A DNA stretch of 64,000 bases. Source: an uncultured Bacteroidota bacterium (GTDB lineage Bacteria > Bacteroidota > Bacteroidia > Flavobacteriales > Flavobacteriaceae). Below, piece after piece: positions 6,454 to 59,034 of the stretch. The notes below the pieces were generated by a model that was given only the letters and a program-made list of their open reading frames with translations, was not told the origin of the DNA and searched no databases. The stretch spans positions 29,398 to 93,397 of the forward strand of contig CABXBY010000001.1 in NCBI GenBank assembly GCA_902510655.1, in the 5' to 3' direction. Positions within the stretch are counted from its first letter, which is position 1. The number at the start of each line of letters is the position of its first letter. The translations under genes were made by a program, and so were the position numbers.

Positions 6454-7500
6454 TTGAAAAAAAAATTGATAATGATAAATAGACTTTGTTCAATAATAAT
6501 TTTGCTTTTATTAATTTCTTGTGGCTCAACAAAAAAAGAAAATTTTAACATTGATCTTATAAAAACAAAAGAATATTTAAAAAATAATGATCAAATTGAA
6601 TTTACTATCAATAACCCCTTAGATAAAAACATTACAAATCTTAAATTTAAAATTGACGACAATTTAGTTTCAAGTCCATTTTTATTAAATAATAAGCTAG
6701 GTAAAAATATATTAAAAGCTACTTTTAACGTAAATGAAAAAAAATATACTTTAAAGAAAGAATTTGTTATTTATTCATCAGTTAAACCAAAAATATATAC
6801 CTATAAAATAATTAATGAGTTTTCACATGATATGAATTCTTACACACAGGGATTAGAGTTTGATAATAATAATTTTTTATATGAAGGCACTGGTCAATAT
6901 GGATTTTCAATGTTAAAAAAAATAAATTTTGAATCTGGTGAAGTTCTAGAAAAATTATTTTTAGACAAGTCTTATTTTGGTGAAGGAATTACTGTTTTAA
7001 ATAATAAAATTTATCAGTTGACATGGAAAAGTAAAATTGGCTTTATTTATAATTTAAATGATTTCAAATTAATAAGATCCTTCAACTATAAAAATAGTAT
7101 TGAAGGCTGGGGTTTATGTAATGACGGAGAATATTTATATAAATCAGATGGCTCTGAGAAAATATGGAAATTAGATAAAAACAACTTGGAAGAAATTAGT
7201 TTTATTAATGTTGTAACTAATAATAAAGTAATCAATAAAATAAATGAACTCGAATGGTTTGATAATAAAATTTATGCTAACACTTATCAGTTTAATAAAG
7301 AAGTAGGGTTAATAATAGATTCTTCTACTGGTCAAGTTGATGGTGTAATAGATTTTAGTGGATTAAAGGATAAAGTTAAGGACCATCCTAAACTAGATGT
7401 TTTAAATGGAATAGCTTACAATAAAAAAAGGAAAACTTTTTTTATTACTGGAAAAAACTGGAATAAGTTATTTGAAATTAAAATAATAGAGAAAAATTAA
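6454..7500 (+). CDS. Glutamine cyclotransferase (glutaminyl cyclase), lipoprotein
   Basis: [33 protein letters not shown] and a beta-propeller-like repeat pattern. Lipobox LLISCGS. The track start is TTG; the in-frame ATG at 6472 is a more likely start. Confidence 0.8.
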
Positions 7501-8768
7501 TTAAATAAAAGCCTTCCTTTCATTAGATTGTTCACCTCAATTTTAACACTGTTTATTTCATCTAAATTTTGATGATTTTTAATAACTCTATCGATAAAAT
7601 TTACAATCAATACCATGTCTTTTTCTTTCAAGCCTCTTGTTGTTATGGCAGGTGTACCGAATCTAATACCAGATGTTACAAAAGGAGATTTATCATCAAA
7701 TGGAACCATATTTTTATTGGCTGTAATATCTGCTTTAACTAATGCTAATTCTGCATCTTTTCCAGAAATATTTTTATTCCTAAGGTCGATTAACATCATA
7801 TGATTATCTGTGCCTCCTGAAATAATTTTATAATCTTTTTTAACAAATTCTTCTGCCATTGCTTTTGCATTTTGTCTGACTTGAACCATGTAAGTCATGA
7901 AATCATCAGTTAATGCTTCACCAAATGCAATTGCTTTTCCAGCAATAACATGTTCTAATGGACCGCCTTGATTTCCAGGAAAAACAGCTAAATCAACCAA
8001 TGATGACATTTTTTTTAAAGATCCATTTTTAAATTTTAATCCAAAAGGATTGTCAAAATCTTCACCCATTAAAATTAGACCTCCCCTTGGTCCTCTCAAA
8101 GTTTTATGCGTAGTTGTAGTTACAACATGACAATGCGGAATAGGATCATTTAAAATTCCTTTAGCAATTAATCCAGAGGGATGTGAAATATCTGCTAATA
8201 AAAATGCATCAACAGAGTCGGCAATTTCTCTAAACTTTTCAAAATCAATATCTCTAGAGTAAGCTGATGCTCCAGCAATAATTAATTTTGGTTTTTCATT
8301 TAATGCTATTTCAGAAATATTATCATAATCTAATTCACCGGTTATTTCATTTACGCCATAAAATACAGGATTATACAATCGTCCACTAAAGTTAACTGGA
8401 GACCCATGTGTTAAATGTCCGCCGTGAGATAAATCAAATCCTAAAATTTTATCTCCAGGGTTTAAAAAAGCATGATATACTGCAGTATTAGCTTGAGAAC
8501 CAGAATGTGGCTGTACGTTTGCGTATGCTGCTCCAAACAACTCCTTAGCTCTATTAATAGCTATAGTTTCTATTTCATCAACCACTTCACAACCGCCATA
8601 ATATCTCTTTCCAGGGTAACCTTCTGCATATTTATTGGTTAAAACAGATCCAGTTGCTTTCATTACATCAGGACTAGTGAAATTTTCAGATGCTATTAAT
8701 TCAATTCCATTCAACTGTCTATTTTCTTCTTTTTCAATTAAATTAAAGATCTCTTTATCTATACTCAT
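7497..8768 (-). CDS. glyA: Serine hydroxymethyltransferase
   Basis: 423 aa. PLP-lysine motif [14 protein letters not shown] and the LIASENF N-terminal motif. Confidence 0.95.
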
Positions 8769-8862
8769 ATCTAAAAATTTAGAATGTAAATTTAATAACC
8801 AATTAATAAATCATAAAGAAATTAATAACATATTTTCAAAAAACAATTAACAATTAACAATA

Positions 8863-9180
8863 TTAATTTTTTATATTTTTAAATGATATTGCAGAATGAG
8901 ATGAATTATGAACTAAACTTCCATTTTTAATCACTATTAACTGAGGTGATTCGTGATTTATATTAAAATTAGATGCTAATTCGTTTGATAGTTTTTTGTT
9001 TTTAACAACATCAATTAAGTAAAATTTTATATCTGAAAAATTTTTATAATCAAATTCAAATTTCTTTAAAACAATTCTACTAATTATACACCTGTAAGAA
9101 TGTTTGAATATTACAATAAAATCATCTTTATAATTTATATCGTTATAATCATTCGGTTCAATCCATTTAATTTTAGACAT
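8863..9180 (-). CDS. ytxJ: YtxJ-like monothiol thioredoxin-fold protein
   Basis: FKHSYRCIISR matches the YtxJ T/S-x-C-x-I-S monothiol motif. I trimmed the start to the internal ATG (MSKIKW) because the longer ORF would overlap the smpB start region. Confidence 0.6.
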   Translation of the reverse strand: MSKIKWIEPNDYNDINYKDDFIVIFKHSYRCIISRIVLKKFEFDYKNFSDIKFYLIDVVKNKKLSNELASNFNINHESPQLIVIKNGSLVHNSSHSAISFKNIKN

Positions 9181-9206
9181 TTTAAAAATACTTGTAACTT
9201 TGTTTT

Positions 9207-9659
9207 GTGAATAAAAGAGTAAATATATTAAATAAAAAAGCAAAATATGAGTATCAGTTACTTGATCAGTATAATGCTGGAATAGTTTTAACTGGGACAG
9301 AAATTAAATCCATTAGGCAAAATAAAGCCTCTATCTCTGAAAGTTTTTGTGAATTTAATGATAATCAAGAATTATTTATTATTAATATGTTTATTGACGA
9401 ATATGAGTTTGGTAATCATTATAATCACAAAACAAAATCTCAAAGAAAACTCTTATTAAACAAAAAAGAATTAAAAAAACTTAACAAAGATGTTAGGAAT
9501 TCAGGTCTTACTATTGTTCCTTTAAAAGTTTTTATAAATGAAAAAGGGTTTGCAAAAATTTTAATATCATTGGCAAAGGGTAAAAAAACTTATGATAAAC
9601 GTCAAGTTATTAAGGATAGAGAAAATAAAATACAATTAGATAGATTAAAAAAAATTTAA
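9207..9659 (+). CDS. smpB: SsrA-binding protein
   Basis: 150 aa. NKKAKYEYQLLDQYNAGIVLTGTEIKSIR and a basic C-terminal tail. GTG start in the track. Confidence 0.9.
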   Translation: MNKRVNILNKKAKYEYQLLDQYNAGIVLTGTEIKSIRQNKASISESFCEFNDNQELFIINMFIDEYEFGNHYNHKTKSQRKLLLNKKELKKLNKDVRNSGLTIVPLKVFINEKGFAKILISLAKGKKTYDKRQVIKDRENKIQLDRLKKI

Positions 9660-27871: not shown

Positions 27872-29818
27872 ATTATCTAACCCCTCTTTTAACCAATTTA
27901 AGTATTTGTCTTTGGAAGTGTACTGTATTGGTTTATTGAGTATTCTTAAATCATTATCTAAAAGCACATAATACGGTTGCGAAGCACTTTTGAAGTTAAT
28001 TGCTTGAAAGGTAGCTCCTTTCTCTCCTACTGTTTTAATAATTTTTTCTTTACCAGACTTGTATTTTAATGTAATGAAATCTTTGACTTCTAACTCCTTT
28101 CTATCATCAACATAAAGTGATATTAAAACAAAATTATCATTAATCAAATTATAAACTTCAGGATCAGTCCAAACGTTTTCTTCAATCCTCCTACAATTTA
28201 CACATGCCCATCCAGTAAAATCTAATAATATTGGTTTGTTTTGAGATTTAGCGTAACTAAGACCTGAATCAAAGTCTTTAAAGCAAGTAAAGCCCAAAGG
28301 ACAATCATTTGACTTACTATAAATGGAATAAAATGCTGGAGGGGTAAATCCACTTAATATTCTAGCTTTATCAGAACCGTTTTGTAACAAAGCTGGAAAA
28401 AGATAAACAGAAAAACCTAAAACAAAAAAACCTAGAATAAGATTAAATTTTGATGTTATAACATTTTTACTCTCATGTGGGAATTTATATAAACCTAATA
28501 AATACAAAGACAAAGAAAAAGAAATTAATACCCATATTCCAATAAAAACTTCTCTTTTAAGTATCCCCCAATGTTCAACTAAATCGGCGTTAGACAAAAA
28601 CTTGAAAGCAAAACCTAATTCTAAAAAACCTAAAATTACTTTAAACGTATTCATCCATCTCCCAGATTTAGGAAGAGTAGTTAGCAAATTTGGGAATAAA
28701 GCAAAAATTGTAAATGGTAAAGCTAAAGCTACTCCAAAACCTAACATCCCTATGGTTAACTGAATTGCGCCCCCTTGAGATGAAATTGAACCAACTAACA
28801 AAGAACCTAAAATTGGACCAGTACAGGAAAACGATACTAATACCAAAGTTAATGCCATAAAAAAAATTCCTATATAGCCACCAACAGAGTTAGATTTTGA
28901 GTCAATTGAATTAACCCATTTTGAAGGGATTGTTATTTCATAGAAACCAAAAAATGAAAACGCAAACAAAATAAAGACTACAAAAAAGAAGATATTCAAT
29001 CCTGCATTTGTTGATATACTGTTTAATATTTCTGGATCAATTGAATCAAGAAAATGAAAAGGAATACTTAAGGACAAATAGATACCAACTATAAATAGAC
29101 CGTATATAATTGCATTGAACTTGGAATTCTGTTCAGATTTGTTATTTGTAAAGAACGAAACAGTCAGTGGAATCATTGGAAAAACACATGGTGTAAGAAG
29201 TGCTAATAAACCACCAATAAATCCAAGTATAAATAGATTTAAATATGAACTAGAAGTCAAAGCTGAACTATCGTTAATTGTAGATAATAATTCCGTGTTT
29301 TTTAAATCAATTGCTAATGCATTGTTGTTTTCATAGATATCGGATGTTAAATCTATATTTTCAATAGCTAATGTTGATCCGTCAAAATTAAAAATAAGAT
29401 TTGCTTCTCTAAAAATACATACAACGTCGTCACAAGCCTGATATGCAATTACAGCAGAGATATTATAAATAATTTTATTAGTCTCAATTAATTGTGTGAA
29501 AGTTGATTGATTTTCAAAATAAGATTGTTCAATCTGAAAAATAGGATCAAATTTTGTTATTGATTGAGACTCACTAACATCTCCAATTAATTTAACGGAT
29601 TGTGATTTATTATCAAAAATAAACTCTGTTGGAATCGCTCCCCCAGATAATAAGTTCTGTGAATATAACCTCCACTTTTTCTGAATGTTAGCTGTGGTAA
29701 TTAGTTCAAAAGTGTTTTCAGAAATCTTATTTACCTTAGTCTCAAAAGTTATTGGATCCTGAGAATAACCAAGAAAACTTAGAGTTAAAAATAATATTAC
29801 TAAAAAATTATTTTTCAA
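27866..29818 (-). CDS. dsbD: Thiol:disulfide interchange protein DsbD-like
   Basis: N-terminal domain with ACDDVVC, CcdA-type membrane core (LTPCVFPMIP, FSCTGP), and a C-terminal thioredoxin fold GWACVNCR. Confidence 0.85.
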   Translation of the reverse strand: MKNNFLVILFLTLSFLGYSQDPITFETKVNKISENTFELITTANIQKKWRLYSQNLLSGGAIPTEFIFDNKSQSVKLIGDVSESQSITKFDPIFQIEQSYFENQSTFTQLIETNKIIYNISAVIAYQACDDVVCIFREANLIFNFDGSTLAIENIDLTSDIYENNNALAIDLKNTELLSTINDSSALTSSSYLNLFILGFIGGLLALLTPCVFPMIPLTVSFFTNNKSEQNSKFNAIIYGLFIVGIYLSLSIPFHFLDSIDPEILNSISTNAGLNIFFFVVFILFAFSFFGFYEITIPSKWVNSIDSKSNSVGGYIGIFFMALTLVLVSFSCTGPILGSLLVGSISSQGGAIQLTIGMLGFGVALALPFTIFALFPNLLTTLPKSGRWMNTFKVILGFLELGFAFKFLSNADLVEHWGILKREVFIGIWVLISFSLSLYLLGLYKFPHESKNVITSKFNLILGFFVLGFSVYLFPALLQNGSDKARILSGFTPPAFYSIYSKSNDCPLGFTCFKDFDSGLSYAKSQNKPILLDFTGWACVNCRRIEENVWTDPEVYNLINDNFVLISLYVDDRKELEVKDFITLKYKSGKEKIIKTVGEKGATFQAINFKSASQPYYVLLDNDLRILNKPIQYTSKDKYLNWLKEGLDNL

Positions 29819-50706: not shown

Positions 50707-50791
50707 GGAGAAATGGCAGAGTGGTCGAATGCGGCAGTCTTGAAAACTGTTGAGGGTCACACCTCCGGGGGTTCGAATCCCTCTTTCTCCG
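50707..50791 (+). tRNA. tRNA-Ser (anticodon UGA)
   Basis: Acceptor GGAGAAA/TTTCTCC. Anticodon stem GCAGT/ACTGT with loop CTTGAAA (anticodon TGA). Long variable arm (class II). T-loop GGTTCGAATCC. CCA is not encoded. Confidence 0.9.
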
Positions 50792-50799
50792 CTTAGTCA

Positions 50800-50845: not shown

Positions 50846-50905
50846 AATTTGTATGATTATTGTACGGCCAGCACTACTAAAAACCCAAAAAATCTCAATA
50901 GTAAT

Positions 50906-50995
50906 TTTTAATTGGTACTACCCTACTCAAATAATATCGGTTTTCTTTAGAGGGGAGGTGTTTGTGTAATGATGTATAATAGTAAGTGTCTTAGT
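50906..50995 (+). repeat. Direct repeat copy 1 (~90 bp)
   Basis: TTTTAATTGGTACTACCCTACTCAAATAATATCGGTTTTCTTTAGAGGGGAGGTG... My ungapped hand alignment gives 11 mismatches in 90 against copy 2. Confidence 0.85.
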
Positions 50996-51045: not shown

Positions 51046-51339
51046 ATGAAACTTAATAATGAATATATTGAAAAGCTAAAAAATGTAGACCTTGAGTGGG
51101 ATTTTGAATATTATGAATTCTTAGATGGAGACGATGAACCAGGGCTTTATTTACTTCGAGGTGAAGATGCAAAGACTTGGAAAAAAGCTAAAGGATGGTC
51201 AGAAGAAAATATTGAAGAAAATAGTTCTATTGAATTTTCACAAACTCAAATTGCTGAAATTCAATCAAATGCTATATCAAATGAAAGCTGCCCTGAACAT
51301 GACAAAATACTCCTTGATCACTTACTAAATTTAATGTAG
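51046..51339 (+). CDS. Small acidic hypothetical protein (97 aa)
   Basis: ORF with D/E-rich stretches (DLEWDFEYYEFLDGDDEPG, EENIEENSS). No motif recognised. Confidence 0.45.
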   Translation: MKLNNEYIEKLKNVDLEWDFEYYEFLDGDDEPGLYLLRGEDAKTWKKAKGWSEENIEENSSIEFSQTQIAEIQSNAISNESCPEHDKILLDHLLNLM

Positions 51340-51399
51340 ATTATTAATTCTAAAAACATTATATGAATTCATTTATTAAAAGATGCTTAAAATTTAAAA

Positions 51400-52392
51400 T
51401 TATTTTACTTTATAAATTAATTCTACATAATCAGGATTAAATTTTTTATTTACTTCAAAATAAAAATTTTTGATTTCATCCATTTTTTTCCATTCGCTAA
51501 CTACAGCATTCATTTTCCTTGCTAAATCAATTGAATTAGGGTAATCTTTTTTGCTAATGAACTTTTCATTATTTTTTAATAGTTTTAAAATTTCTTTTTC
51601 AAAAAATTTAAAATTTGTTTTAAAATCCTCGTTTAAGGCTACCTCAAAAAAACTTCTTGGTATTGAATCGCTCTTATATCGATTGAGACTTAGCCCTATT
51701 GGTACTAAATTTTCAATAATATTTCCAGGTCCCCCTACACTTTTAGGAACAAAATGATCAATATCAACGAGATGCCCAATTGAATAATTTTGATTAAAAA
51801 AAGAGTATATTTTTAGTCTTAAATCGCCTGGTATTTTAGGATCTAATTTTTTGACTTGTTTTAAACTGCAATCTGGATTATCATTTAAGTATTTAACATC
51901 TTTTTCTTTTAATTCAAAAAATATACTTGCTAAACCACGTTTAATGGAAGCATCATACTCTTTTAACGGTCCATTATAAGGGATTGTCCTTTTAAGTAAT
52001 TTTTGATTTGTATAATATTGATGACATCTTAACTTATAATTTGAATCAGAAGAGAGCTTATCTTTAAATAATCTTATTTTATCTAACCAATAAGAATCAT
52101 CTTTAAATTGTTTAGAATAATCTAACACCTCTTCAATTGTGCTAAATACATCAACAGACAAAGTTTTCACAACTTTACCTTTTGCATAAATACCTCCGCT
52201 TGTTTCTGCTACATAAATAATATCATACATTTTTAATTTATGGGAAGGTGGATTTCTTTTATCCTTACCAATAGTAATCTCGAAATACCCTTTTTTCTTA
52301 GAATTGTTTTTTTTTAAATCTCTAAAAGAGTTACTTCTTTTTATCAAGAATGATTTTATTTTTTGATTTTCCAATAATTTTATTTTAATCAC
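51400..52392 (-). CDS. HNH endonuclease with an uncharacterised N-terminal domain
   Basis: HNH motif DIDHFVPKSVGGPGNIIENLVPIGLSLNRYKSD (D-H...N...N). The N-terminal segment MYDIIYVAETSGGIYAKGKVV loosely resembles PUA/EVE/ASCH-type barrels. The GTG start overlaps the upstream gene's stop (GTGA). Confidence 0.7.
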   Translation of the reverse strand: MIKIKLLENQKIKSFLIKRSNSFRDLKKNNSKKKGYFEITIGKDKRNPPSHKLKMYDIIYVAETSGGIYAKGKVVKTLSVDVFSTIEEVLDYSKQFKDDSYWLDKIRLFKDKLSSDSNYKLRCHQYYTNQKLLKRTIPYNGPLKEYDASIKRGLASIFFELKEKDVKYLNDNPDCSLKQVKKLDPKIPGDLRLKIYSFFNQNYSIGHLVDIDHFVPKSVGGPGNIIENLVPIGLSLNRYKSDSIPRSFFEVALNEDFKTNFKFFEKEILKLLKNNEKFISKKDYPNSIDLARKMNAVVSEWKKMDEIKNFYFEVNKKFNPDYVELIYKVK

Positions 52393-53286: not shown

Positions 53287-54015
53287 ATGAACGTATTTAA
53301 TAATAGGTTTTTTCTAAACCATTTGAAGGACAAGGATTTAATAAGTTATAATGCTAATTCTTTGTGTGATGTTAAACAAGAAAAGTTAAACCATATTTTT
53401 AGGACGAACGATGTGTCTTATATTCCTATAATAAGGAGAGATTCTGAATGTTTAGGTGTTGTTAGTAGAAAAAAATATTTTTTTTCTATTCTAGATAATA
53501 AAAAGTTTGATATTAAATCTTTAATTATTGAAATGCAAGAGGTTGATAAGGAGGATTCTCTAGAAAAAACTCTTTTAAAACTTAAAAATGAGTCAGGTCT
53601 TTTATTAAAGATTGATGGTAAGATTAGAAAATTTATTTCTCCTCGGGTAGTTTCTAATGCATTTGCAACTTACTCATATAGATATATGATGATTGAAAAA
53701 GTTGAGATTGCTATTAGAAAATATATTATTAAAAATAACATTGATTTTATTGAATTATTGAAAGAAAAAAAATTAGACAAAAAATTTAATAATAAAGAGA
53801 AGGAATTAGATGACCTTTTTTTCTTTGATTATTTGATAATCTTTGGAAGCGCTTGGGAAACTTTGGATTTATTTAAAAATAATTTAGCTGATAAAAAAAT
53901 GTTTTTATCTGATTTATCACAAATTGCTCAAGTTAGAAATGATCTTTTACATTTTAGAAATAATTTAGAATTTGAGGAAAATATTTTTAAAAATATCCTC
54001 AAGTTTTTGAAATAA
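53287..54015 (+). CDS. CBS-pair domain fused to a Swt1-like HEPN domain (putative ligand-gated RNase)
   Basis: Two CBS-like units (YIPIIRRDSECLGVVSRKKYF; LLLKIDGKIRKFISPRVV). The C-terminal helical region has LFFFDYLIIFGSAWETL and the HEPN R-x4-H motif in AQVRNDLLHF. Confidence 0.6.
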   Translation: MNVFNNRFFLNHLKDKDLISYNANSLCDVKQEKLNHIFRTNDVSYIPIIRRDSECLGVVSRKKYFFSILDNKKFDIKSLIIEMQEVDKEDSLEKTLLKLKNESGLLLKIDGKIRKFISPRVVSNAFATYSYRYMMIEKVEIAIRKYIIKNNIDFIELLKEKKLDKKFNNKEKELDDLFFFDYLIIFGSAWETLDLFKNNLADKKMFLSDLSQIAQVRNDLLHFRNNLEFEENIFKNILKFLK

Positions 54016-54488
54016 TGAAAAAAATAATCTTTATCGATATGGATGGTGTACTTGTAGATTTTGGAAAGCAAGTCAAGAAAGCTAGAGAAAATCCTAATTT
54101 AAGTGATAGATTAAAAAATCATCCTGATCAAATTCCAAATATTTTTAAAAACCCTCCAGTGTATGAGGGAGCAATTGAAGGTGTTAATCAGTTGTACTCT
54201 TCAAACTTGTATGATCTTTTTATTGCTACATCACCAGCTTGGTTTAATCCAATGAGTTTTACTCATAAAAGATTATGGATTGAGAAGTATTTCGGTCAAT
54301 TGTTTAAAAAAAAAATGATTATAACTCATAGAAAAGATTTACTTATTGGAGATTATTTGATTGATGATAGATTAGCCAATGGGGCTAAAGATTTCAAAGG
54401 AAAGTTATTGAGATTTGGTTATGATTATGAAAAAAAAACATGGAACGAATATCGAGATTGGGATTCGATTATTAAATATTTATTATAA
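54015..54488 (+). CDS. 5'(3')-deoxyribonucleotidase (NT5C-type HAD phosphatase)
   Basis: HAD motif I IFIDMDGVLVDF, motif II LFIATSP, and motif IV LIGDYLIDDR. 157 aa. The ATG overlaps the upstream stop (TAATG). Confidence 0.7.
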   Translation: MKKIIFIDMDGVLVDFGKQVKKARENPNLSDRLKNHPDQIPNIFKNPPVYEGAIEGVNQLYSSNLYDLFIATSPAWFNPMSFTHKRLWIEKYFGQLFKKKMIITHRKDLLIGDYLIDDRLANGAKDFKGKLLRFGYDYEKKTWNEYRDWDSIIKYLL

Positions 54489-54493
54489 AAACT

Positions 54494-55279
54494 ATGGAAA
54501 AATTAATTAATGAGGCTTTTAAGAGTTATTTGAAAACAGCCAAGCTAGAAAGTAATGAATCAAATATGCCTTATTACATAAACAATAGAAATATTGTTCC
54601 TGTTAAAATTAAAATTGAACAATTTCTTCATTTGATTTCAGTTGATAAAGAATTTAGAAAAAGGTGGTGGAAAACAGCTCCCTCGTTTGAAAATTTAAAG
54701 GATAATTCATTAATTCAACAGGACTCTCTGATGAAAATAATTATAGGAATTTTGAATGATCCTAATCTAAAGGAACTAAATCAACATGGAAAGAAAGGTC
54801 AAGTTTTATATCTTTTTGGAAATGCTGTTGCTTCTTACAGCAACTACAATCATTATTATTTAATCTCAAAAGAAGCTCTTTTGGTTCTTAAAAACAATGA
54901 TATTGATGTTAGTTCACCAGTTAGTAGATCTAAAATCTTCGAAATTAGACACAATAGAAAAAAACTATTAACCTTTGAACATATGTGTCCTTCATCTCAG
55001 TTAATAAAATTATTGATTGAACTTAGAGAAAATCATGAAAGTGGAAAAAATAAATCTTCGAATTTAAGTTTAAATGAAAAGATTTTAGAGAAGTTTTATA
55101 ATTATGGTTTAGTATGTATAATTACTAAAGATGAAGATATGGGATTGAAAGGAAAATTAAGAACAGATTTATCATTTAGCTCTAAAACCAGTACTTCTCA
55201 AATGTTAAATAGATATGAAAAAGCAAATATAGAATTAGCCAATACACTAATTCCAGTTTATGGAAAAATGTACAGATGA
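54494..55279 (+). CDS. Hypothetical protein (261 aa), operon member
   Basis: 5-nt gap to the upstream gene and 4-nt ATGA overlap with the downstream gene. The only suggestive motif is LTFEHMCPSS (E-H-x2-P, as in some His-Me finger/DUF1524-type nucleases), which is weak evidence. Confidence 0.5.
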   Translation: MEKLINEAFKSYLKTAKLESNESNMPYYINNRNIVPVKIKIEQFLHLISVDKEFRKRWWKTAPSFENLKDNSLIQQDSLMKIIIGILNDPNLKELNQHGKKGQVLYLFGNAVASYSNYNHYYLISKEALLVLKNNDIDVSSPVSRSKIFEIRHNRKKLLTFEHMCPSSQLIKLLIELRENHESGKNKSSNLSLNEKILEKFYNYGLVCIITKDEDMGLKGKLRTDLSFSSKTSTSQMLNRYEKANIELANTLIPVYGKMYR

Positions 55280-56766
55280 AATATAAACTTTCCAAATCGA
55301 CTTTTATTAGAGGGCTTCAATGTGAGAAGTCACTGTATCTATACAAGAAACATTATAAATTAAAAGATCCCACTAGCCCATCATTACAAGCTGTTTTTGA
55401 CCAGGGAAATAAAATTGGTGTATTAGCTCAATCCTTATTCAAAGGAGGTGTAGATGCTTCTCCTTCAAGTCATTTTAGGATGATGGAATCCGTAACAAAA
55501 ACCAAAGCATTTTTAGGAAGTGGAGAATCCATAATTTATGAAGCTACATTCACCTACAATGAAGTATTAGCTGCACTTGATATATTGGTAAAAGATAAGG
55601 ATGGTTGGAAAGCTTACGAAGTTAAAAGCTCAACCTCTGTTTCAGAGACCTACATTAAGGATGCAGCTATTCAATATTACACAATTGTAAACTCAGGAAT
55701 CGATTTAGTTGATATTTCTGTAGTTCATATAAATAATCAATATGTCTTAGATGGAAATTTAGATATTGATCAGTTATTTACTATTGAATCAGTAAAAGAT
55801 AGAGTCTTAGATTATCTTCCTGAAATCCCTAGTGAAATCACAAGATTGAAGAACGTTATCGAACTTGATTCAGCTCCTAATATTGATATTGGATCTCATT
55901 GTAATGAACCTTATGACTGTGATTTTAAAGGAACTTGTTGGAAACATATTCCCGAGTATTCTGTATTTGATATCTCTAATCTAAACAAAAAGAAAAAGTT
56001 TGATTTTTATAATAGGGGTATTCTAACTTTAGATCAGGTAGATTTATCACAAACAAAGCTTAGTGAAAATCAAATATTACAAATTGAATCTGAAGTTGAA
56101 GGAAAGTCTTATATCAACAAAAATGAAATTGGAAATTTTTTACATAATCTTAATTACCCTTTATACTATCTAGATTTTGAAACCATTAACCCTGGTGTTC
56201 CTAAATATCAAGGTTTAAGGCCCTATCAAAATAGTATATTTCAGTATTCTCTACATGTTAAACAATCAGAACATTCAGAACTAATACATAAAGAATTCCT
56301 TGCTGATCCAATAAAAGATCCTAGGGTTGAACTTATTGAGCAGTTAATAAGTGATTGTGGACATTCAGGCGATATATTAGTTTACAACATAAGCTTTGAA
56401 AGAAGCAGATTACATGAACTAATTGAGCAATTTCCTGAACATAAAGATCCGTTACAATGCATTATAGAAAGACTTAAGGATCTTATGATACCATTTCAAA
56501 ATAAGTGGTATTATACGCCTGAAATGAGAGGCAGTTATTCTATCAAGAGTATACTTCCAGCACTTATTCCAGAACTATCATACAATGATCTTAATATTAA
56601 TGATGGTGGAACAGCATCTTCAACATTTCAATCTATGATGAATGGTAGTTTTAAAGGAGATGAATTATCAACTAGAAAAGATTTATTAGAATATTGTAAG
56701 TTGGATACATATGCTATGGTTAAAATTATAGATAAGCTGAAAAATAAAATTATTTTAAATTTTTAA
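55276..56766 (+). CDS. DUF2779-like protein: Cas4/RecB-like PD-(D/E)xK nuclease domain fused to a DEDDy-like exonuclease domain
   Basis: N-terminus KLSKSTFIRGLQCEKSLYLY. PD-(D/E)xK elements IIYEATF / AALDILV / AYEVKSS. Cysteines in a 1+3 arrangement (C16, and HCNEPYDCDFKGTCW). The C-terminal half has YLDFET (DxE), VYNISFE (Nx2FE) and EYCKLDTYAM (Yx3D). Confidence 0.65.
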   Translation: MKYKLSKSTFIRGLQCEKSLYLYKKHYKLKDPTSPSLQAVFDQGNKIGVLAQSLFKGGVDASPSSHFRMMESVTKTKAFLGSGESIIYEATFTYNEVLAALDILVKDKDGWKAYEVKSSTSVSETYIKDAAIQYYTIVNSGIDLVDISVVHINNQYVLDGNLDIDQLFTIESVKDRVLDYLPEIPSEITRLKNVIELDSAPNIDIGSHCNEPYDCDFKGTCWKHIPEYSVFDISNLNKKKKFDFYNRGILTLDQVDLSQTKLSENQILQIESEVEGKSYINKNEIGNFLHNLNYPLYYLDFETINPGVPKYQGLRPYQNSIFQYSLHVKQSEHSELIHKEFLADPIKDPRVELIEQLISDCGHSGDILVYNISFERSRLHELIEQFPEHKDPLQCIIERLKDLMIPFQNKWYYTPEMRGSYSIKSILPALIPELSYNDLNINDGGTASSTFQSMMNGSFKGDELSTRKDLLEYCKLDTYAMVKIIDKLKNKIILNF

Positions 56767-56850
56767 TTGGTAATACCCTACTCTAATAATATCGGTTTTC
56801 TTTTGATGGGAGGTGTTCGTATCAGTATGTATAATAGTGAGAGTCTTAGT
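56761..56850 (+). repeat. Direct repeat copy 2 (~90 bp)
   Basis: TTTTAATTGGTAATACCCTACTCTAATAATATCGGTTTTCTTTTGATGGGAGGTG... Its head contains the TAA stop (56764-56766) of the DUF2779-like gene. Confidence 0.85.
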
Positions 56851-58944: not shown

Positions 58945-59034
58945 TTTTAATTGGTTCTACCCTACTTTAATAATATCGATTTTCTTTGGAAGAGAGGTGT
59001 TTGTATATTGATATGTAAGAGTAAGAGTAAGATT
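58945..59034 (+). repeat. Direct repeat copy 3 (~90 bp, most diverged)
   Basis: TTTTAATTGGTTCTACCCTACTTTAATAATATCGATTTTCTTTGGAAGAGAGGTG... My hand alignment gives 17 mismatches in 90 against copy 1, with the first ~55 nt best conserved. Confidence 0.8.

Follow-up and report, generated by a model that had tools for sequence, protein, structure and literature searches.

A CBS-HEPN, nucleotidase and orphan gene cassette exchanged in front of a conserved DUF2779 nuclease gene in marine Flavobacteriaceae

The 64,000-nucleotide stretch of contig CABXBY010000001.1 analysed here (positions 29,398 to 93,397 of the forward strand, below called the window) comes from an uncultured member of the Flavobacteriaceae and carries four closely packed plus-strand genes: g1, encoding a CBS-pair protein with a HEPN domain, g2, encoding an NT5C-family deoxyribonucleotidase, g3, encoding a protein of a small unnamed family, and g4, encoding a DUF2779 nuclease. 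The window proteins were mapped onto a comparison set of 47 related loci (numbered from L001 upward), in which all open reading frames (ORFs) were clustered. This comparison shows that g4 is a lineage-wide conserved anchor whose 5' end marks a hotspot for the exchange of defence cargo, and that g1-g2-g3 is a cargo cassette passed as a block between genomes with different g4 alleles. With moderate confidence, we interpret the region from a tRNA-Ser gene to g4 (~50.8-56.8 kb) as a mosaic defence islet of separable modules, in which g4 would be the anchor and g1-g2-g3 the swappable cargo, with g1 as the probable effector because of its homology to the anti-phage protein DS-11.

Cargo exchange at the 5' end of the DUF2779 gene

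The upstream contexts were sampled from eight g4 homologues picked for their long contigs; in the records L035-L044, g4 occupies positions 8001-9479 or 7001-8479. At least six unrelated defence cargos were found in front of g4 orthologues. The genes upstream of g4 belong to a BREX system (PglX-PglZ-BrxL) in L035-37 and to a different BREX in L043, while SNF2 is found with an N6_N4 methylase and ResIII in L038/39, and with methylases and PglZ in L040. A pAgo (Piwi) gene takes this place in L044, McrBC together with DUF6339 in L042, DUF2357/PDDEXK_7 in L046, and the g1-g3 cassette in L041. In most of the sampled loci, the preceding gene ends 0-14 nt from the g4 start, and in the two divergent BREX loci the BrxL stop codon stands immediately before the DUF2779 ATG. 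The g4 proteins of L035, L038, L041, L042, L043 and L044 are 84-98% identical to each other, yet identity falls to 43% for the BrxL pair and to 21% for the PglZ pair. The same break is visible at the nucleotide level, as L035 and L044 are 97% identical from g4 position 0 to +5303 and share nothing upstream, where one carries BREX and the other pAgo. Similarly, L040 and L043 are 97.6% identical from +16 to +7500, with unrelated cargo upstream.

The L041 locus is a recombinant whose crossover lies within the first ~9 nt of g4. Its g1, g2 and g3 are 91%, 88% and 90% identical to those of the window, but its g4 is 71% identical to the window copy and 93% identical to that of L035. The first codons of this g4 (ATGAAATATAAACTT) are of the window type, and the sequence is of the L035 type from about +9. 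Because the identities split at the 5' end of g4, it follows that g1-g2-g3 moves as a cassette and that g4 stays with the recipient.

The abundance of these genes also differs strongly. More than 4250 homologues of g4 were retrieved (E < 1e-10), of which marine Flavobacteriaceae contribute hundreds at ~70% identity, versus 15 clusters among 5.8 billion for the rare g1 family and 33 clusters for g3 (113 representatives among 1.84 billion proteins). Across the loci, the neighbouring defence genes include McrBC, Type I restriction-modification, BREX, pAgo, T5orf172 with a helicase, and KAP NTPases, and the defence-related context proposed for this locus in the initial annotation is thereby borne out.

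Concerning the anchor itself, g4 is a member of the known DUF2779 family (Pfam PF11074; 150.3 bits, cut-off 23.3), predicted to combine a Cas4-like PD-(D/E)xK nuclease with a DEDDy 3'-5' exonuclease. This dual-nuclease architecture has already been published, as RNase H-like family F.17 (Majorek 2014, PMC3985635) and for the mycoplasma homologue MMSYN1_0389 (PMC13621843). The Cas4-like residues of g4 (C16, D104, E-V-K, QxY and the Cys cluster) and its DEDDy-type C-terminal residues (DFET and Yx3D, the latter as YCKLDT) are both kept in four homologues, down to 22% identity; the profile matches of the Cas4-like domain are weak (PADLOC Cas4, E 3.4e-4; PHROG 1706). Like DUF2779/UU173 proteins, g4 carries the signatures of both domains (D...ExK and QxxY for the first, DxE and Yx3D for the second). 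In contrast to the mycoplasma protein, which has two of the Cas4-type cysteines, it keeps all four, and despite the strong Pfam match it falls below the NCBIfam UU173 subfamily cut-off (NF045869; 56.8 vs 225 bits).

Defence hotspots flanked by core genes reportedly exist elsewhere, an example being the core defence hotspots of Pseudomonas aeruginosa, and the present locus resembles them in that a conserved flank gene adjoins highly variable defence cargo exchanged by recombination. It differs from them in the position of the homology break, here at the anchor start codon or a few nt from it, and in the nature of the anchor, since this gene encodes a nuclease and often abuts the last cargo gene translationally. 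We know of no earlier description of DUF2779 as the anchor of a defence hotspot. A hotspot marked in this way offers a practical handle for finding new defence genes in marine Flavobacteriaceae, an ecologically important and poorly studied clade, and it raises the question of the role of this widespread uncharacterised nuclease.

A second variable site was observed on the other side of the anchor, in the form of a block between DUF2779 and a 525-aa gene (L035:9759-15134, L038:9807-16419, L044:8759-15479). This conserved block holds a small integrase/resolvase, a 538-aa N6_N4 methylase and three further genes (146, 70 and 58 aa), together with a large serine recombinase or, alternatively, an HTH_17 gene. 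L040 and L043 do not carry the block, and the 525-aa gene follows DUF2779 directly.

A compact relative of DS-11 and its nucleotidase neighbour

The g1 protein matches the NCBIfam model NF053863 (DS11_antiphage, 'CBS domain-containing anti-phage protein') at E 2e-16, although its 60 bits stay well short of the cut-off of 260. The alignment runs over g1 residues 33-226 and profile positions 96-288 (of 305), so that the CBS and HEPN parts are both covered. DS-11 is a one-protein CBS+HEPN anti-phage system validated in E. coli in 2026 (DefensePredictor, Science; PMC13092281), the E. coli protein being WP_000257686.1. It loses defence upon mutation of the CBS part (Y157A) or of the HEPN part (R330A / H335A), and its activating ligand is still unidentified (PMC13092281). 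The initial annotation had recognised no named system in the gene combination of the window, a statement that has to be revised, as g1 matches a named family and the combination is not wholly unnamed; its suggestion of a HEPN RNase gated by a CBS pair is precisely what experiments demonstrated for DS-11 (PMC13092281).

In the AlphaFold2 model of g1 (pLDDT 87.7), the N-terminal ~120 residues match CBS-pair (Bateman) structures, including DarB, CorC and the human CBS regulatory domain (Foldseek E ~3e-5, target TM 0.6-0.75), and the Pfam CBS match is weak. The remainder of the model is helical, and the RNDLLH motif (residues 217-222) sits within a long helix. All 11 available homologues keep R217, H222 and Y45. 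Going by the shift in numbering of the catalytic arginine (330 in DS-11, 217 in g1), and without an alignment, Y157 of DS-11 would correspond to g1 position ~44-45, close to or at the invariant Y45.

In g1, as in DS-11, a CBS module precedes a HEPN domain that carries a catalytic R-x4-H, and both proteins are probably ligand-gated abortive-infection RNases, in the case of g1 by homology. However, g1 is shorter (242 vs ~365 aa), the first ~95 profile positions being missing, and it fails the equivalog test both in score and in length. It also comes from marine Flavobacteriaceae rather than Enterobacteria, and an NT5C gene usually comes next, while the validated DS-11 system consists of one gene. 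The protein, with its complete CBS pair, is best described as a distant, shorter DS-11 relative forming a new compact subfamily. CBS-HEPN fusions, some with an additional HD phosphohydrolase, were catalogued in 2013 by Anantharaman et al. (PMC3710099). Judging from their description, they share with the window a CBS sensor and an active HEPN RNase, in some cases with a nucleotide phosphohydrolase, but the phosphohydrolase of the window is a separate HAD/NT5C gene instead of a fused HD domain.

Searches beyond these families returned little. No plasmid or phage match was found by tblastn for g1 or g3, and g1 has no relatives in IMG/VR. PADLOC-DB v2 gave zero matches for g1, g2, g3 or the three upstream genes, and the MNT nucleotidyltransferase domain, the partner in HEPN-MNT pairs, was detected by Pfam in 0/7 island ORFs.

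On sequence grounds, g2 is a true NT5C deoxyribonucleotidase and an ordinary member of this known family. It matches Pfam NT5C (PF06941; 55.1 bits, cut-off 24.8, E 1e-14) and the mdN/cdN structures of the PDB (E 5e-12), as well as PHROG 420 and 2643. It shares HAD motifs I and IV (DMDGV and GDYLIDD) with the human mdN and cdN and with the phage proteins of PHROG 2643, but it is shorter (157 vs ~195 aa), and a defence island is an unusual place for such a gene.

From these similarities, a mechanism can be proposed. The Bateman module of g1 would bind an adenine-type nucleotide that is either produced or lost in the course of infection, by analogy with its DS-11 homologue, and the change in ligand would control a dimeric HEPN R-x4-H RNase, which would then cleave RNA and halt the infected cell. 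In other words, g1 is likely an autonomous, ligand-gated abortive-infection RNase, as predicted from its DS-11 homology. The g2 enzyme would dephosphorylate (deoxy)nucleoside monophosphates, most likely as a dispensable accessory that may tune the nucleotide pool or the ligand sensed by g1, or that may act alone on phage-derived deoxynucleoside monophosphates. A functional link between g1 and g2 is plausible. That the compact marine g1 subfamily is nearly always followed by a deoxyribonucleotidase hints at a nucleoside-monophosphate-type signal as the input of the CBS sensor and, should the NT5C enzyme indeed set the ligand of the sensor, it would point to the ligand class of DS-11. We consider this possible link, together with the DUF2779-anchored hotspot, as the two leads of value from this analysis.

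Association of the four genes and competing readings

The loci with g1 are all restricted to a narrow set of marine Bacteroidota, and they can be divided into three classes by the identity of their g1 to that of the window. In class A (80-100%; L006-L010, L025-28 and L041), the order is g1-g2-g3-g4, all in the same direction. In class B (67%; L011-14 and L029-32), g1 is followed by a 72-aa ORF, then by an inverted g2 and by g4 in the orientation of g1, and g3 is missing; McrBC lies downstream in L029. Class C (44-48%) is more heterogeneous. The order g1-g2-g3 is found in L020 and L022, and g1-g2 is followed by other genes in L019 and L021. L018 has an inverted pair of a DUF2779-like gene and g2 several genes away from g1, and L016 has g1 without g2. 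In L033 and L034, which are two independent assemblies, an intact g1 stands beside a g2 with an in-frame stop. A further locus, L015, combines a frameshifted g1 and a g2 with an internal deletion with an intact g3.

The initial annotation had proposed the four genes as a candidate defence/conflict operon, which as one integrated system would have a sensor-RNase, a nucleotidase, an unknown adaptor and a dual DNA nuclease acting together. Its four ORFs and three junctions are placed correctly, as read from the sequence: the TAA of g1 (54013-15) overlaps the ATG of g2 (54015-17) as TAATG, the TAA of g2 (54486-88) is separated by a 5-nt gap from the ATG of g3 at 54494, and g3 and g4 share an ATGA overlap at 55276-79. 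This tight packing speaks for a single system, as do the translational abutment of g4 to g3 and a terminator scan that detected no intrinsic-terminator-like site from g1 to g4 on the plus strand. The co-occurrence outside the source genome does so too, since the complete arrangement recurs in L007-L010, L025 and L041. However, this full set is confined to close relatives (g1 at least 80% identical), L029-32 keep g1, g2 and g4 without g3, and g3 is found with other conserved partners in other phyla. In addition, g4 orthologues stand behind BREX, pAgo, PglZ/SNF2, SNF2/methyltransferase/ResIII and McrBC-type cargo, and the crossover of L041, at the g4 5' end, has placed a g1-g3 block of ~90% identity in front of a g4 of 71%. 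The integrated system is largely refuted by these neighbourhoods and we regard it as highly improbable. Because g3 is missing in class B, g2 can be inverted or a pseudogene, and g4 follows other cargos, the four genes are not one obligate system; g2, g3 and g4 are each uncoupled from g1 in some loci, and the genes are separable parts whose reading as a unit is not supported.

A smaller system made of g1 and g2, in which the NT5C enzyme makes, removes or proof-reads the CBS ligand and g3 and g4 are unrelated neighbours, is possible, although we place it on the unlikely side; in it, g2 could be an off-switch or threshold setter. Indeed, g2 is the most constant neighbour of g1, the two genes standing side by side in almost every locus of sufficient length (100-44% g1 identity) with a 1-nt overlap or a gap of at most 17 nt, and the divergence of g2 roughly follows that of g1. 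The fusions of CBS-HEPN with an HD phosphohydrolase (PMC3710099) provide an independent, non-homologous precedent, and the lack of an identified DS-11 ligand also leaves room for such a pair. Against it, g2 is on the opposite strand and beyond the 72-aa ORF in the loci with a 67% identical g1, it has decayed next to an intact g1 in L033/L034, it is lacking beside g1 in L016, and it adjoins a distant DUF2779 gene instead of g1 in L018. DS-11 alone, moreover, protects E. coli. As to single-gene action of g1, the loci point both ways, with an intact g1 beside a pseudogenised (L033/34) or absent (L016) g2 on one side and an otherwise strong g1-g2 linkage on the other.

Several observations nevertheless weigh against our reading of the region as a mosaic islet with g1 as its effector. 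The adjacency of g1 and g2 is kept down to 44% g1 identity and over three g1 clades, with junctions usually of at most 17 nt, which is more than expected for unrelated neighbours. The g1 protein lies far below the equivalog cut-off of NF053863 and lacks the N-terminal ~100 residues. Because all g1 loci come from one narrow marine group, linkage and its loss are not easily told apart from common descent and assembly error. Finally, because the g4 start mostly abuts or overlaps the preceding gene and no terminator separates g1 from g4, g4 may still be co-transcribed with its cargo and contribute to its function. Pushed further, DUF2779 could be a shared downstream nuclease co-transcribed with any upstream cassette (BREX, pAgo, PglZ/SNF2 or CBS-HEPN/NT5C/g3), the exchange at the start codon being a plug-in swap and NT5C setting the (deoxy)nucleotide ligand of the DS-11-like sensor, a scenario that we find improbable.

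It is also quite improbable, in our view, that the genes have no immune role, with g2 and g4 as salvage and DNA-repair housekeeping genes, g1 as a nucleotide-responsive regulatory RNase, and the packing as a product of streamlining. NT5C enzymes are classical salvage enzymes, g4 behaves as a core gene, the region has no compositional anomaly, and the mycoplasma DUF2779 homologue MMSYN1_0389 is quasi-essential in JCVI-syn3.0 (PMC13621843), all of which would fit such housekeeping. In contrast, g1 and g3 have a patchy distribution and are extremely rare, g1 has a validated anti-phage protein among its homologues, known defence genes are abundant in every sampled neighbourhood, and accessory defence cargo typically shows the kind of polymorphism seen here, in presence/absence and in pseudogenes.

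The g3 family, upstream genes and dispersed repeat

No family was found for g3 in Pfam, PADLOC, NCBIfam or PHROG. Most of its relatives are 160-200 aa long, equivalent to g3 residues ~75-261. The conserved positions (Y106, N110, E162-H163-x-x-P166, T211..E214, MP..W, R240-Y241 and a C-terminal G...R), which appear in the family as the motifs Y..N, FEHxxP, T..E(D/N), MP..W, RY and C-terminal G...R, look like catalytic or ligand-binding residues. The g3 model is confident (pLDDT 88, pTM 0.88) and has no fold match in the PDB (best E 0.59), its sole structural matches being three uncharacterised phage proteins, one of them from Synechococcus phage S-T4. The invariant FEHxxP motif and one match to a PHROG 'HNH endonuclease' prompted the idea of an HNH / His-Me nuclease, which was dropped: the match covers P0220 residues 6-87, outside the g3-homologous core, and neither Pfam nor PDB profiles support it.

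The neighbourhoods of g3 homologues are diverse. In L001, g3 occurs without g1 and only an 18-aa remnant of g2 remains upstream, whereas L046 has g3 1.5 kb downstream of another DUF2779 gene. The g3 homologue of L002 (10001-12861) stands beside a KAP NTPase, again without g1, and that of L045 (2227-7774) comes after TerB, KAP NTPase, Castor_Poll_mid and TerC genes, with a 4-nt overlap with the end of the TerC-like gene. A conserved cluster was found in metagenome-assembled genomes of Algoriphagus, an unclassified Bacteroidota and Limnohabitans (L003:2478-7062, L004:2142-6919, L005:577-5260), in which a g3 homologue of 44-47% identity is followed by c10 (~280 aa, possibly a membrane protein) and c11 (~730 aa) in the same direction and by c12 (237 aa) in the opposite one. 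The proteins c10, c11 and c12 have zero matches in Pfam, PADLOC, NCBIfam or the PDB, and for the recurrent neighbours c5, c6, c9, c10-c14 and c25, Pfam, PADLOC and NCBIfam gave nothing informative. The best explanation is that g3 is an independent defence-island gene from a small uncharacterised family, and this family and its cross-phylum partners c10, c11 and c12 are candidates for one or more new systems. As side observations, KAP-family P-loop NTPases adjoin g3 homologues in two unrelated contexts (L002 and L045), and a 156-aa gene upstream of DUF2779 in L046, considered as a cryptic NT5C, has no significant similarity to g2.

The layout of the window region is given in Table 1. The tRNA neighbouring the genes was confirmed by ARAGORN, and the HNH gene reported beside them is present, albeit with a weak match. 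All motifs named in the initial annotation (RNDLLH, DMDGV, GDYLIDD, YEVKSS, YLDFET and the 1+3 cysteine pattern) occur in the translations, and its domain assignments stand up to Pfam, NCBIfam, AlphaFold2/Foldseek and motif conservation. The GC content of the region is 0.24-0.30, without compositional difference from its surroundings, and a sigma-70 promoter scan, a model ill-suited to Bacteroidota, gave matches no commoner than in shuffled sequence.

Table 1. Features of the islet and its borders, in window coordinates.
Feature	Position	Strand	Remarks
tRNA-Ser(TGA)	50707..50792	+	left border of variable region; ARAGORN; Rfam tRNA 59.7 bits
Dispersed repeat, left copy	50903..50995	no strand	~110-nt intergenic family
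o97, 97 aa	51046..51339	+	island neighbour; no family match
HNH330, 330 aa	51400..52392	-	separate island module; weak C-terminal HNH_4
acid279, 279 aa	52389..53228	-	acidic; divergent from g1; no family match
g1, 242 aa	53287..54015	+	compact CBS-pair + HEPN (R-x4-H); distant DS-11-family relative
g2, 157 aa	54015..54488	+	predicted NT5C-family HAD 5'(3')-deoxyribonucleotidase; Pfam PF06941
g3, 261 aa	54494..55279	+	small unnamed family; conserved motifs, no family match
g4, 496 aa	55276..56766	+	predicted DUF2779-family dual nuclease; Pfam PF11074
Dispersed repeat, right copy	56758..56850	no strand	begins within final 9 nt of g4
Dispersed repeat, third window copy	58945..59028	no strand	blastn 81-85% identity; flanked by housekeeping-type genes

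The genes had been described as lying between direct repeats. Such repeats exist, as two 93-nt copies that flank the islet and are 88% identical, but they are not an island-specific att pair. Because of the third copy in the window and the many copies in related loci, they are members of a dispersed, well-conserved intergenic family of ~110 nt, whose consensus includes TACTACCCTACTCAAATAATATCGGTTTTCTTTTGAnGGGAGGTGTTTGTATAAT. The possibility that they are att sites bounding an integrative island or an integron cassette was rejected, as the element is dispersed and Pfam detected an integrase domain in 0 island ORFs. The repeat corresponds to no Rfam family, and the predicted structure of its consensus is only weak. 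Related loci have two or three copies each, often bracketing gene modules, and copies were noted in L029, L030, L013, L025, L008 and L031. In L008 (3126-3916) and L025 (3078-3868), g4 is truncated at 216 aa with a repeat copy immediately after it, and because the truncated gene directly abuts the repeat, this suggests a repeat-mediated deletion. The element may act as a recombination substrate or as a promoter/terminator element.

Regarding the upstream genes, o97, HNH330 and acid279 have no significant family assignment in Pfam, PADLOC, NCBIfam or PHROG. The C-terminal match of HNH330 to Pfam HNH_4 is under the cut-off (E 0.0021), and its N-terminal half has no assignment. This gene accompanies g1 in L026-28 and L033/34 and is missing from L006-L010 and L041, while o97 co-occurs with g1 in L009, L041, L028 and L033/34 at 81-97% identity. 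The two genes (window 51046-52392) recur, in changed order and orientation, beside a g1 of 44% identity (L033:1597-2976, L034:952-2331). Because they recur together yet are missing from other g1 loci, HNH330 and o97 look like a separate mobile module. The acid279 gene adjoins g1 in the class A loci. A 1259-aa TPR protein (L021:6074-9853) begins with a region 47% identical to the N-terminal ~120 aa of acid279. This TPR protein sits directly upstream of a g1 of 45% identity, which hints at an association of the N-terminal domain of acid279 with g1.

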